Part shown: one piece after another, positions 5,325-32,094 of the stretch | Position numbering within the stretch: position 1 is the stretch's first letter | Layout: every line of letters begins with the position of its first letter | Source of the DNA: Escherichia coli | GTDB taxonomy: Bacteria > Pseudomonadota > Gammaproteobacteria > Enterobacterales > Enterobacteriaceae | Assembly (NCBI RefSeq): GCF_030013205.1 | Contig: NZ_CP122648.1 | DNA length: 64,000 nucleotides | Reading direction: 5' to 3' (one strand) | Position numbers and translations under genes: made by a program | The notes under the pieces: model-generated | Database searches by the model: none | What the model was told of the DNA's origin: nothing | What the model saw: the letters and a program-made list of their open reading frames with translations, nothing else

Positions 5325-6358
5325 ACGAAACTCCCGCACTGGCACCCGATGGTCAGCCGTACCGACTGTTAACTTTGCGTAACAACGCAGGGATGGTAGT
5401 CACGCTGATGGACTGGGGTGCGACTTTACTTTCAGCCCGTATTCCGCTTTCCGATGGCAGCGTCCGCGAGGCGCTGCTTGGCTGCGCCAGCCCGGAATGC
5501 TATCAGGATCAGGCCGCGTTTCTGGGGGCCTCTATTGGTCGTTATGCCAACCGCATCGCCAATAGCCGTTATACCTTTGACGGTGAAACCGTGACGCTTT
5601 CGCCAAGCCAGGGCGTTAACCAGCTGCACGGCGGCCCGGAAGGGTTCGACAAACGTCGCTGGCAGATTGTGAACCAGAATGATCGTCAGGTGCTATTTGC
5701 CCTGAGTTCAGATGATGGCGATCAGGGCTTCCCGGGTAATCTCGGCGCGACGGTGCAATATCGTCTGACCGACGATAACCGTATCTCCATTACTTATCGC
5801 GCCACAGTTGATAAACCTTGCCCGGTGAATATGACTAATCACGTCTATTTCAATCTTGACGGCGAGCAGTCTGACGTGCGCAATCACAAGTTGCAGATTC
5901 TGGCGGACGAATATCTGCCGGTTGATGAAGGCGGCATTCCGCACGACGGCCTAAAATCTGTCGCTGGAACGTCTTTTGATTTCCGCAGCGCCAAAATCAT
6001 CGCCAGTGAGTTTCTTGCCGACGACGATCAGCGCAAAGTGAAAGGTTACGATCACGCGTTCTTGTTACAGGCCAAAGGCGATGGCAAGAAAGTGGCGGCG
6101 CATGTCTGGTCAGCAGATGAAAAATTGCAGCTGAAGGTCTACACCACCGCTCCGGCTCTGCAATTCTACTCCGGCAACTACCTCGGCGGCACACCGTCGC
6201 GGGGAACCGAACCTTACGCCGACTGGCAAGGGCTGGCGTTGGAAAGCGAGTTTCTGCCGGACAGCCCGAACCACCCTGAATGGCCGCAACCGGACTGCTT
6301 CCTGCGTCCTGGCGAAGAGTATTCCAGCCTGACGGAATATCAGTTTATTGCTGAGTAA
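5318..6358 (+). CDS. galM: Aldose 1-epimerase (galactose mutarotase)
   Basis: 346-aa ORF overlapping galK end by 7 nt; matches GalM. Confidence 0.95.
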
Positions 6359-12079: not shown

Positions 12080-12324
12080 CTTACCATCTCGTTTTACAGG
12101 CTTAACGTTAAAACCGACATGAGCGTAATATTCGCTGTTATCGGTGTAATTTGTTTTATATGCTAAACAAGATAGTCGAATGGTGGGGAAAAGTCACTCG
12201 AATTACGTATGAGATGCCGAATGCCACACTTTGCGTCTTATTTCTCCGACGTAAAGTTGTTTACGCAGCAAACGCGGAGTATGTCATCTGGGTTAAGAAT
12301 TGAAATTGAGAGATGCCTGAATAG

Positions 12325-12352
12325 CAAAAAAGCGCCTTTAGGGCGCTTTTTT
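12325..12352 (-). terminator. Intrinsic terminator at the end of the lysT tRNA operon
   Basis: Palindrome aaaaaagcgcc-ttta-gggcgctttttt; reads as hairpin plus U-run on either strand. Confidence 0.7.
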
Positions 12353-12356
12353 ACAT

Positions 12357-22953: not shown

Positions 22954-23898
22954 ATGAGTCCTGATAATATCAGTTCTGCTGTCAATCGCTTCTCAGGTTG
23001 GCCATCTAATGATCCTCTAAAAACAGATAAAGAATCAATGACATCACCCATGACTGTGCAGGTAATAAAGATGATTGCCGCCATCCTTGACCCACATCGG
23101 ATAGTCGTTGGAATCGATACACTTTATACAACGCAGCGCGAAACATTTACCTCAGAGAGTCAACAGCTCATTGAATCAGCATTGCAAACACTTCATGTGA
23201 TGAATTTAAATAACCTGGAAACAAATCTCGATGAGGAAGGTCACTATCTGGCTTTTGGATATAACGTTGACACTCCTGACAGAATAACCGTTTCTGCTTA
23301 TAATGAAAAAAAGCCTGGCTGCTATGGCCAATGTCTTTTAATACAGGATGACGAAACAGACTTATTTAACCTGATAAAAGTTAAAATTTTTGAAGCCAGA
23401 CATAATTATGTCGCTCAATTGATGAGCGATCCGGAATTTATGTTCAAATTTAGTTATAGCGCTCAACAAAATAGATTAGAACCTCATCTTCTGGTTCCCA
23501 CTTATTTCCCTCTAAAAACAAACGAACCGGTTACGCAAGAGGATGTACTGTTACTTTATCGTTTCTTTAAAATGGATGGTGATTTTAATATATTAACATC
23601 AGATGAATACATGAGCATCATGACACCTCTGATGAAGTGTGAGCGCAGCATCCACGACCACAACAGGTATGTGACGGGCAAAGATACCCTTCTTCTGGAC
23701 TATCCTCCTTCTGGTAACCAGATATATTTCCATATTTTTCCTGACGAATCAGCAACACTAGTCCTTTATTTTTCAAACAATGACATTGAATGTTTCGTCT
23801 TTGAAAGAGATATTCCGAGCCAGTATCGCTTTTTCAAAATGTTTACCAATCTGGCACTGGTTATTGATCAGTTAACCGATGCCAATCAAATACTTTAA
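22954..23898 (+). CDS. Hypothetical protein (314 aa), low-GC orphan, no recognisable family
   Basis: Uninterrupted ORF with GAGG RBS 8 nt upstream of the ATG; AT-rich codon usage (spot counts 25/60 and 18/60 G+C) unlike neighbouring core genes. Confidence 0.6.
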   Translation: MSPDNISSAVNRFSGWPSNDPLKTDKESMTSPMTVQVIKMIAAILDPHRIVVGIDTLYTTQRETFTSESQQLIESALQTLHVMNLNNLETNLDEEGHYLAFGYNVDTPDRITVSAYNEKKPGCYGQCLLIQDDETDLFNLIKVKIFEARHNYVAQLMSDPEFMFKFSYSAQQNRLEPHLLVPTYFPLKTNEPVTQEDVLLLYRFFKMDGDFNILTSDEYMSIMTPLMKCERSIHDHNRYVTGKDTLLLDYPPSGNQIYFHIFPDESATLVLYFSNNDIECFVFERDIPSQYRFFKMFTNLALVIDQLTDANQIL

Positions 23899-23978
23899 TT
23901 TTTATATATTCCCTGTGGCAAATATTGCTAAACAATGCCCGGGGATTAATTTTTATTACTCACGGAAAGATTTAAATA

Positions 23979-24401
23979 ATGATCCCATCTCAAATCTCTT
24001 TCAACACCCTTCCTGTCAATGCAACATACGCTTCAGAGACAACAGTTGACACACAAAAATTCTCTGACATCCTCTACTCAGCGGGGTGTTCCCTAAAGGA
24101 TCTGGCTTATCTGAGCAGATGTCTGGCATCAATACATCCGACTATCGCCAAAAACATTTATGAAACAGAAAATCTCAGCGATCAAAAATTACTACATATT
24201 GATTGCCGTAGTACAAATGAAATCAAGATAAATATCTTTTTTGGTCAACAACGAGAAGGATTAATTGAAATTAGTTCTGACACAGTCATTTTTTCGATAC
24301 TGTCTTCATTGATTGACTCCACCATTTCTAAATTTCAACACCAAAACCCCGTTAACGGTTCTGTAAATCCTGACCTATTGTATGAGGATTATACTGATTA
24401 A
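23979..24401 (+). CDS. Hypothetical protein (140 aa), low-GC orphan, no recognisable family
   Basis: ORF 80 bp downstream of the 314-aa ORF on the same strand, similar composition; polar Ser/Thr/Ile/Asn/Pro-rich N-terminus. Confidence 0.5.
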   Translation: MIPSQISFNTLPVNATYASETTVDTQKFSDILYSAGCSLKDLAYLSRCLASIHPTIAKNIYETENLSDQKLLHIDCRSTNEIKINIFFGQQREGLIEISSDTVIFSILSSLIDSTISKFQHQNPVNGSVNPDLLYEDYTD

Positions 24402-29494: not shown

Positions 29495-30865
29495 ATGGCT
29501 CGTTCTTTTAAAGTCTTATCGCCTACGGCAATCCTCGGGTATGGATTCCCGGAGGAGAGCTTCCGCAAAGCGATGGCAGAATCGCCCGATCTGATCGCCG
29601 TTGATGCTGGCTCTTCCGATCCTGGCCCCCACTACCTCGGGGCGGGCAAACCGTTTACCGATCGCGCAGGGGTCAAGCGCGATCTGCGCTATATGATCAC
29701 CGCAGGCGTGCAAAATAATATACCGGTGGTGATCGGAACGGCCGGCGGTTCTGGTGCCGCTCCACACCTGGAGTGGTGCCGAGAAATAATTCATGAGATT
29801 GCCCGGGAAGAGCACCTCTCGTTCTCGATGGCGCTGATCCCGGCAGACGTTGACAAAGCCATCGTCCACCAGGCGCTGGATAACGGCAAAATCACGGCGC
29901 TGGATTTTGTCCCGCCGTTAACCCACGACGCGATTGACGAAAGTACGTATATCGTCGCGCAAATGGGCATCGAACCCTTCCAGCAGGCGCTGAAAGAAGG
30001 CGCGCAAGTGGTGCTGGGCGGGCGCGCTTACGACCCGGCCTGCTTTGCTGCGCTACCGATCATGCAAGGCTTTGATGAAGGTCTGGCGCTGCATTGTGGG
30101 AAAATCCTTGAATGCGCGGCAATCGCCGCAACGCCCGGCTCAGGCTCTGACTGTGCGATGGGCATCATTGATGACAACGGCTTTACGCTGAAGACATTTA
30201 ATCCGAAGCGTAAATTTACCGAAACGTCAGCAGCTGCACACACACTGTATGAGAAATCCGATCCCTACTTCCTGCCAGGACCTGGCGGCGTGTTGAACCT
30301 GAAAAGCTGCACATTTAAAGCGGTCAATGACGGCGAAGTGTACGTCAGCGGTTCTAAGCATGAAGAAACGCCGTATTCCCTGAAACTGGAAGGTGCGCGA
30401 CGGGTGGGCTTCCGCTGTCTGACCATCGCCGGAACGCGCGACCCGATCATGATCGCCGGGATCGATAAAATCATCGATGAAGTCAAAACCAGCGTTTCGC
30501 GTAACCTGTCGCTCGACGATGACAGCATTCACATCAATTTCCACCTGTACGGCAAAAACGGGGTGATGGGCGACCATGAACCGATGCAAACTGCCGGGCA
30601 TGAGCTGGGGATTGTCCTTGATGTAGTTGCACCGACCCAGGAAATTGCCAACAGCGTTTGCTCGCTGGTGCGCTCTACCATGCTGCACTACGGCTATGAA
30701 AACCGCATCGCTACCGCAGGTAATCTGGCGTTCCCGTTCTCCCCTTCTGATATTCAGGGCGGGCCGGTATACGAATTTTCCATATATCACCTGATTGAAG
30801 CCAACGACGCTCTGCGTTTTGATTTCCATATTGAACAGGTGACGCCAGAAGGAGTTCAGGCATGA
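29495..30865 (+). CDS. DUF1446 (AtuA-like) family protein, function unknown
   Basis: 456-aa ORF 3 nt after the lyase stop; family assignment from memory of this size class and its usual pairing with a small DUF4387 partner. Confidence 0.55.
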   Translation: MARSFKVLSPTAILGYGFPEESFRKAMAESPDLIAVDAGSSDPGPHYLGAGKPFTDRAGVKRDLRYMITAGVQNNIPVVIGTAGGSGAAPHLEWCREIIHEIAREEHLSFSMALIPADVDKAIVHQALDNGKITALDFVPPLTHDAIDESTYIVAQMGIEPFQQALKEGAQVVLGGRAYDPACFAALPIMQGFDEGLALHCGKILECAAIAATPGSGSDCAMGIIDDNGFTLKTFNPKRKFTETSAAAHTLYEKSDPYFLPGPGGVLNLKSCTFKAVNDGEVYVSGSKHEETPYSLKLEGARRVGFRCLTIAGTRDPIMIAGIDKIIDEVKTSVSRNLSLDDDSIHINFHLYGKNGVMGDHEPMQTAGHELGIVLDVVAPTQEIANSVCSLVRSTMLHYGYENRIATAGNLAFPFSPSDIQGGPVYEFSIYHLIEANDALRFDFHIEQVTPEGVQA

Positions 30866-31061
30866 AACAGTCAATTGTCTCACTGGCGCAAGTCATTCGT
30901 TCGAAAAATGCCGGACCTTACGAACTGGTTTTAGATATTTTATTTAAAACCAAAGAAAACTATGAGCGAGTCAAATCATCAGGGCAATTAACCCCAGAAC
31001 TGATTGGGTGATGCTGCCAACTTACTGATTTAGTGTATGATGGTGTTTTTGAGGTGCTCCA

Positions 31062-31337
31062 GTGGCTTCTGTTTCTATCAGCTGTCCCTCCTGTTCAGCT
31101 ACTGACGGGGTGGTGCGTAACGGCAAAAGCACCGCCGGACATCAGCGCTATCTCTGCTCTCACTGCCGTAAAACATGGCAACTACAGTTCACTTACGCCG
31201 CCTCTCAGCCCGGTACGCACCAGAAAATCATTGATATGGCCATGAATGGCGTCGGATGTCGCGCCAGTGCACGCATTATTGGCGTTGGCCTCAACACGAT
31301 TTTCCGCCACTTAAAAAACTCAGGCCGCAGTCGGTAA
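31062..31337 (+). CDS. insA: IS1 protein InsA
   Basis: 91-aa ORF with zinc-finger Cys residues (CPSCSA...CSHC). Confidence 0.9.
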
Positions 31338-31759
31338 CCTCGCGCATACAACCGGGCAGTGATGTGATTGTCTGCGCTGAAATGGACGAACAGTGGGGCT
31401 ACGTCGGTGCTAAATCACGTCAGCGCTGGCTGTTTTACGCGTATGACAGGATGCGGAGGACGGTTGTGGCGCACGTCTTCGGTGAACGCACTCTGGCCAC
31501 ACTGGAGCGTCTTCTGAGCCTGCTGTCGGCCTTTGAGGTCGTGGTATGGATGACGGATGGCTGGCCGCTGTATGAATCACGCCTGAAGGGAAAGCTGCAC
31601 GTTATCAGCAAGCGTTATACTCAGCGCATTGAGCGGCATAACCTGAATCTGAGACAACATCTGGCAAGGCTGGGACGGAAGTCACTGTCGTTCTCAAAAT
31701 CGGTGGAGCTGCATGACAAGGTCATCGGGCATTATCTGAACATAAAACACTATCAGTAA
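31256..31759 (+). CDS. insB: IS1 InsB frame (expressed as InsAB' transposase by -1 frameshift)
   Basis: 167-aa ORF in the -1 frame relative to insA; slippery A-run (ttaaaaaactc) at about 31311-31321. Confidence 0.9.
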
Positions 31760-32094
31760 GTTGGAGTCATTACCACTGATTGCGCGCTTATATCATGTTG
31801 AACCTGACTTTATTCACCGTATTGTCTGGTTTGATCCTTCTAACGCAGTAAAAATCGTCATGCCACGAGATATTATCTCCGGGAATGTAGGTGACAATGA
31901 TGTCTATGGTGCACAGCAACATGCACCTTTATTAAATATGAGTTTCGATTTGTAAAAATCCGAATACTTTTAGCCAACTGACATCCCGTCACTTATTGCA
32001 GTTCAACACTTCAGCTATTTGTAAGGTTGTAATAGCAGGTAGATGCCTGAATCTCTATTCAGGCATCTACTTCTCCTGATTCTGATTTATCGCC

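Follow-up and report, generated by a model that had tools for sequence, protein, structure and literature searches.

The locus described here lies within a 64,000-nt stretch of DNA, analysed as a whole and called the window below, from the finished and circular chromosome (NZ_CP122643.1) of Escherichia coli ETEC4079, a strain from pig faeces in Belgium. It carries a glutamate mutase/methylaspartase cluster with the gene order glmS-glmL-glmE-mal-cmlA-cmlB, in which cmlB is split by a complete copy of IS1. The features used in the following argument are:

29495-30865, plus strand: cmlA (AtuA/DUF1446 family, 456 aa), the intact large-subunit partner, named from a PDB sequence search
30862-31012, plus strand: 5' fragment of cmlB (DUF4387), PGAP pseudogene QDW55_RS17565
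30999-31006, plus strand: left copy of the 8-bp target-site duplication ACTGATTG, abutting IRL
31007-31774, plus strand: complete IS1, exactly 768 bp, annotated by PGAP as "IS1 family transposase, programmed frameshift"
31007-31029, plus strand: IRL, the left terminal inverted repeat, 23 nt (GGTGATGCTGCCAACTTACTGAT)
31062-31337, plus strand: insA, GTG start, 91 aa, the IS1 zinc-finger/HTH protein
31062-31759, plus strand: InsAB' transposase, 232 aa via a -1 frameshift, a joined CDS in PGAP
31311-31319, plus strand: motif TTAAAAAAC (A6C) of the -1 programmed frameshift that joins insA to insB'
31752-31774, plus strand: IRR, the right terminal inverted repeat, 23 nt
31770-31796, plus strand: candidate outward hybrid promoter TTACCA-15-TATCAT at the IRR/target junction, a consensus match
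31775-31782, plus strand: right copy of the 8-bp target-site duplication ACTGATTG, abutting the right IS end
31783-31955, plus strand: 3' fragment of cmlB, PGAP pseudogene QDW55_RS17575
32038-32071, plus strand: perfect 15-bp stem-loop in the 160-nt spacer between cmlB and the symporter gene (GGTAGATGCCTGAAT ctct ATTCAGGCATCTACC-like)
32116-33396, plus strand: GltP-like symporter, downstream of cmlB on the same strand
33504-35156, plus strand: class I fumarase/mesaconase FumD, same strand, downstream
35166-35768, plus strand: cobO, same strand, downstream

The element begins with GGTGATGCTG and ends with AGTCATTACC, its 23-nt end sequences (GGTGATGCTGCCAACTTACTGAT on the left and ATCAGTAAGTTGGAGTCATTACC on the right) are complementary at 19 of 23 positions, and its insA gene is co-directional with the interrupted operon, with a promoter-like site for insA (31014-31041) overlapping IRL. 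InsA matches the NCBIfam Zn-binding domain of the IS1/IS1595 families (E 2e-9), insB' has an open frame at 31256-31759, and the full InsAB' product matches the NCBIfam model NF033558, "IS1 family transposase", over model positions 1-199 of 199 with a score of 242.8 bits, the cut-off of the model being 100 bits. A sequence-only reading of the window had described a 768-bp IS1 with intact terminal inverted repeats and intact insA and insB frames, and the repeats, the 91-aa InsA, the frameshift motif and the 232-aa fusion bear out this description in full. The window has one copy of the IRL 23-mer, where chance would give 0, and no second IS1 with up to 3 mismatches to IRL was found in the 64 kb; the window thus holds a single IS1, and a composite transposon is ruled out.

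At the DNA level the element represents an isoform with 93.4-93.6% identity to the IS1A and IS1B copies that other strains carry in the same cluster; 51 nucleotides differ from IS1A (about 6.5%), and 220-222 of the 232 InsAB' residues are identical to those of IS1A/IS1B. Both termini are the same as in the IS1A and IS1B copies of two of these loci (L003 and L002), save one base at element position 750 in IRR (window position 31756), the sole inverted-repeat difference from IS1A, where the isoform carries G and IS1A/IS1B carry A, which brings the match between IRR and IRL to 19/23 rather than 18/23. Copies 100% identical to 31007-31774 are found on many chromosomes and plasmids of porcine ETEC/EDEC isolates, and the best match is at least 99% identical in 150 of 9,595 IS1-containing records, with mostly porcine strains among the matches listed. 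The ETEC4079 chromosome itself has 22 IS1-matching places by megablast.

On either side the element is flanked by ACTGATTG, and both copies abut the IS ends, in agreement with the 8-bp direct repeat that the sequence-only reading had placed there. A 9-bp duplication was considered and rejected, as the two copies have different neighbours, A (left) vs C (right) in front of the repeat and G (left) vs C (right) behind it. The 8-mer alone is not rare (4 occurrences in the window vs 2.1 expected), and its weight lies in its placement against both IS ends and in the empty-site test described below, not in its rarity. IS1 typically duplicates 9 bp of its target, with 8 bp also known, and the work of Iida et al. 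from 1985 is said to have found IS1 duplications of varying length; our literature search on 8-bp vs 9-bp IS1 duplications returned nothing useful. We surveyed eight other identical copies of the isoform, three of which have an 8-bp duplication, two a 9-bp one and three none, so that, with the present insertion counted, four of the six copies with a duplication have 8 bp and not the canonical 9 bp. The recurrence of this length at other identical copies shows that 8 bp is normal for the isoform, and a connection between these 8-bp duplications and the base at position 750 is possible. As a separate observation, the target heptamer ACTGATT (30999-31005) recurs at 31024-31030 within the IRL of IS1 (TTACTGATTT); chance could account for this, and old reports hold that IS1 favours targets resembling its own ends.

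Precise excision of the element restores the gene. In-silico removal of 31007-31782 from the interval 30400-32400 leaves 1,225 nt that match the locus of strain ETEC4067 exactly, and the same deletion rebuilds, in frame, an ORF of 105 aa whose product equals the DUF4387 protein WP_000813947.1, so that the earlier proposal that the ORF is restored by removing IS1 and one repeat copy stands. A megablast search with 30400-32400 against 5,426 complete E. coli genomes found IS1 at this site in a single genome, that of ETEC4079. The locus is present without IS1 in 1,124 of these genomes and contiguous in 1,118, and in dozens of them, mostly porcine ETEC and oedema-disease strains, both flanks are 100% identical and span 1,225 bases vs 2,001 in ETEC4079, the difference being 768 + 8. 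The sequence-only reading had pointed to a comparison across the site in related isolates, and ETEC4067, ETEC1748 and K_EC180 indeed have the empty site, with 100.0% identity over 25 kb upstream save one 156-bp repeat-unit difference. As such near-identical relatives lack the element, the insertion is recent and strain-specific, which upholds the earlier view of a recent event; it may even have arisen during laboratory passage of the isolate. A strain-specific insertion set against an exact empty site in near-identical relatives, along with the intact frames and the many identical copies, several of them with target duplications, also leads us to infer that the isoform belongs to an active element family, multicopy in the porcine ETEC lineage. 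The 156-bp difference itself lies at 12080-12356 of the window, between nadA and the first tRNA-Lys gene, where ETEC4079 is shorter than relatives that are identical to it otherwise; in ETEC4067 one more unit, annotated as "RtT sRNA", separates nadA from the tRNA-Lys/Val array, Rfam detects two RtT copies within that array in the window, and the difference looks like the gain or loss of a repeat unit.

Multicopy repeats are a classic source of misassembly, and the roughly 22 IS1 places on the ETEC4079 chromosome raise the question of whether an assembler might have misplaced an IS1 copy into cmlB. A misplaced repeat would produce neither a precise 8-bp duplication nor boundaries that coincide exactly with the IS termini, and the record is a finished circular chromosome; we consider an assembly artefact exceedingly improbable.

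Independent IS1A or IS1B events have struck the glutamate-fermentation cluster of four further E. coli strains (positions 5505-6272 in locus L003, 5020-5787 in L006, 4214-4981 in L002 and 3813-4580 in L005). In E200086 and XJ5.2, fumD is interrupted by an IS1A flanked by 9-bp duplications (GCCTCTTTT and GTCTCAGCA), whereas in EC2641 and 14EC033 an IS1B without a duplication joins the truncated remains of the symporter and LysR genes, and these latter events are IS1-mediated deletions. Decay of the cluster is thus sporadic, and cmlB is not an IS1 hotspot. The duplication-less joins in EC2641 and 14EC033, together with the three of eight other identical isoform copies that lack a duplication, are what could be adduced for reading the ETEC4079 element as the mark of a rearrangement (a deletion, an inversion, the resolution of a cointegrate or IS1-IS1 recombination) and not of a simple insertion. 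Here, however, both flanks share the 8-bp repeat, gene order is unchanged on either side of the one IS1 in the 64-kb window, and the excised 1,225 nt equal the sister-strain locus; this identity with the ETEC4067 empty site refutes a rearrangement, which we regard as virtually inconceivable. The flanks are collinear with, and identical to, those of the empty-site sister strains, and by these sequence comparisons the insertion is a simple, recent and strain-specific transposition, as had been proposed from the sequence alone. Elsewhere in the window, the fimbrial usher gene ybgQ (49961-52420) is a PGAP pseudogene with an internal stop, and an ISAs1-family transposase remnant (ybfD, 63180-63947) is annotated by PGAP as a partial pseudogene at the window end.

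The rebuilt 105-aa ORF is a DUF4387 protein (Pfam PF14330, E 2.9e-39), and in a PDB sequence search it matches chain B of entries 9ERQ and 9EVF, "Citramalate lyase, subunit B (cmlB)", with E 5.2e-57 and 88 of 104 residues identical (85%). Its upstream neighbour matches chain A of 9ERQ, "Citramalate lyase, subunit A (cmlA)", over its full length (E 4.3e-290, about 92% identity), and the cmlA stop and cmlB start codons overlap as ATGA at 30862-30865. NCBIfam models contain no family for CmlA or CmlB, and it was the PDB search that proved decisive for the function of both. By homology, then, the interrupted gene is a homologue of cmlB, for citramalate lyase subunit B; the sequence-only reading had rightly called it a small partner gene, the partner being the AtuA-like cmlA, and its function can now be assigned. 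The remaining cluster genes of ETEC4079 are all annotated as intact. Among CmlB homologues, a search for DUF1446-DUF4387 fusions found the best 120 of 1,650 to be all free-standing, 92-161 aa long and nearly all around 105 aa, and these hits yielded no domain-fusion argument that CmlA depends on CmlB.

The putative citramalate lyase activity of CmlAB is read from the PDB molecule names and from a preprint (10.64898/2026.01.16.699985), in which the two-subunit Cml (cmlAB) of Raoultella planticola, a gift of the Berg laboratory, cleaves citramalate directly to pyruvate and acetate, and for which both Cml subunits were cloned. Our literature search for a primary CmlAB paper yielded this one preprint, from a user of the enzyme. 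Kronen and Berg (2015; PMC4682846) had described the enterobacterial cluster as glmS-glmL-glmE-mal-DUF1446-gltP-fumD-cobA with a LysR regulator and had shown FumD to be a mesaconase, but they could not detect a citramalate lyase and described what becomes of citramalate as unclear, and the conditions under which the cluster is expressed were unresolved at that time. The cmlAB identity fills the gap left by that study. Upstream of the cluster, at 22954-24401 of the window, cydA and glmS are separated by two genes annotated as hypothetical (945 and 423 nt) and then by 547 nt of untranslated sequence before glmS. Rfam, run over the entire window, gave no match within or close to the cluster; in front of glmS it found neither a riboswitch nor another family, although the pathway is B12-dependent.

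The insertion falls after the first base of cmlB codon 49. The 5' fragment consists of native codons 1-48 followed by a Gly codon and a TGA stop, the latter supplied by IRL, and the 3' fragment, which runs from the second base of codon 49 through codon 105 to the stop, is cut off from its start codon. In an alignment of 21 CmlB homologues (55-90% identity), 18 of 28 invariant positions, including those of the motif D88-x-YGAQQHAPL98, lie downstream of the break. With these invariant residues lost and residues 1-48 plus one Gly left, it is very likely that CmlB function is abolished, and with it the activity of CmlAB, in line with the earlier expectation that the gene is probably inactivated. 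That CmlAB would need its small subunit is suggested by the PDB entry names, the two-subunit cloning in the preprint and the conservation of the sequence. The last step of the methylaspartate pathway is very probably abolished in ETEC4079 on these grounds, and the phenotypic effect of the insertion may be nil under most conditions, and any effect of it on fitness is putative. Within the 3' end of cmlB lies a terminator-like hairpin at 31908-31927 (GGTGCA...TGCACC then TTTATTAAAT); it overlaps the codons of the invariant YGAQQHAPLL stretch and is probably a coincidence of coding sequence.

The sequence-only reading had taken cmlB for the last gene of its operon and had credited the downstream symporter gene with a promoter of its own, and neither view is established. 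Three more same-strand pathway genes follow (those for the symporter, FumD and CobO), and the only candidate for an operon boundary is the 15-bp hairpin at 32038-32071, which has a weak U tract, with U at three of the first eight bases after the hairpin. This stem-loop occurs once in the window and is unannotated, the spacer as a whole folds with a z-score of -2.4, and part of the hairpin is listed as terminator-like; its possible roles are termination, attenuation or stabilisation of the transcript. A consensus scan of 31956-32116, an insensitive method, found no promoter-like site on the plus strand. As to the start of the symporter gene, the distance of 320 bp given earlier holds for the in-frame upstream GTG at 32095 and not for the ATG at 32116, which has a GGAGG Shine-Dalgarno sequence, is the start chosen by PGAP and lies 341 nt past the IS1 end and 160 nt past the cmlB stop. 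If the symporter gene, fumD and cobO are co-transcribed with cmlB, polarity of the IS1 insertion would lower their expression as well.

A check for a hybrid promoter reading outward from the IS1 end had also been suggested. The standard promoter scan reports none there, and a scan with relaxed spacing brings up one weak candidate, TTACCA-15-TATCAT, with 9 of 12 matches and a suboptimal spacer of 15 nt. This candidate spans the IRR/target junction and, with the work of Prentki et al. from 1986, in which IS1 ends reportedly create hybrid promoters, it could be taken to mean that the insertion was selected, either because it activates the symporter gene, fumD and cobO or because loss of citramalate lyase is beneficial; the independent IS1 events in the same cluster of four other strains might be read in the same direction. 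The promoter version of this idea has to contend with the poor spacer, the weak -35 element, the silence of the standard scan and the strong hairpin that stands between the candidate promoter and the symporter gene, and also with the IS1 events in other strains, which destroy the downstream genes and do not activate them. Recurrent selection for loss of the pathway sits poorly with the mere 6 of 1,124 genomes without a contiguous locus, and selection in any form with an insertion that shows no sign of having spread beyond one genome. Taken together, this makes a selected insertion very improbable.

We hold with high confidence to a model where an active IS1 isoform inserted itself in codon 49 of cmlB by one simple transposition and where CmlAB is expected to be inactive as a result. 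The isoform, multicopy in the porcine ETEC lineage, would have transposed once into this codon and generated the 8-bp duplication; the truncated CmlB, with 48 residues and a Gly and without the invariant C-terminal motif, would leave CmlAB inactive; and methylaspartate (mesaconate) glutamate breakdown would be blocked at the conversion of (S)-citramalate to pyruvate and acetate. In the case of co-transcription, IS1 polarity would further depress the symporter gene, fumD and cobO. A bolder version, decidedly unlikely in our judgement, is that ETEC4079 is a natural cmlB knock-out whose insertion was selected, through the citramalate block or the outward promoter, and that the isoform is an expanding mutator of porcine ETEC. 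Were this true, the TTACCA-15-TATCAT promoter would uncouple the symporter gene, fumD and cobO from their normal control, and the isoform, which has a changed base in IRR and often duplicates 8 bp, would be a mutator specific to this lineage and in active expansion.

The insertion as such is already known, for the PGAP/RefSeq annotation lists the IS1 transposase and two pseudogene halves of DUF4387, and the event is an ordinary, textbook IS1 insertion that carries little weight for mobile-element biology. What is added here is that IS1 has hit cmlB, from a citramalate lyase characterised only recently, and that near-isogenic relatives with an intact gene exist. It follows from the assignment that the "DUF4387/AtuA" gene labels in the cluster should read cmlB and cmlA. 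The methylaspartate pathway from glutamate to pyruvate and acetate is probably non-functional in ETEC4079, and the strain offers a natural cmlB mutant with near-isogenic wild-type sisters (ETEC4067 and ETEC1748) for the physiology of the pathway in enteric pathogens.

Overall, the locus can be set against three known systems. The gene pair of ETEC4079 resembles the CmlAB enzyme of Raoultella planticola (PDB 9ERQ/9EVF) in its sizes, 456 aa and 105 aa for the native pair, and in its setting within a glutamate mutase cluster, directly after the methylaspartate ammonia-lyase gene; it differs in that cmlB is split by IS1 and its small subunit ends at residue 48. The element itself conforms to the IS1 family, as represented by IS1A and IS1B, in its 768 bp, its 23-nt repeats (GGTGATG... 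and ...CATTACC), its insA, A6C -1 frameshift and insB' arrangement and a target duplication within the 8-9 bp range, and departs from IS1A by a divergence of about 6.5% with one changed IRR base. Finally, as in the polar IS1 insertions of gal and lac, an IS1 lies inside a multigene catabolic cluster with same-strand genes downstream, and the interrupted frame ends three codons into the element; in contrast to those cases, the downstream genes of ETEC4079 lie beyond a 160-nt spacer with a strong hairpin, and their co-transcription with cmlB is putative.
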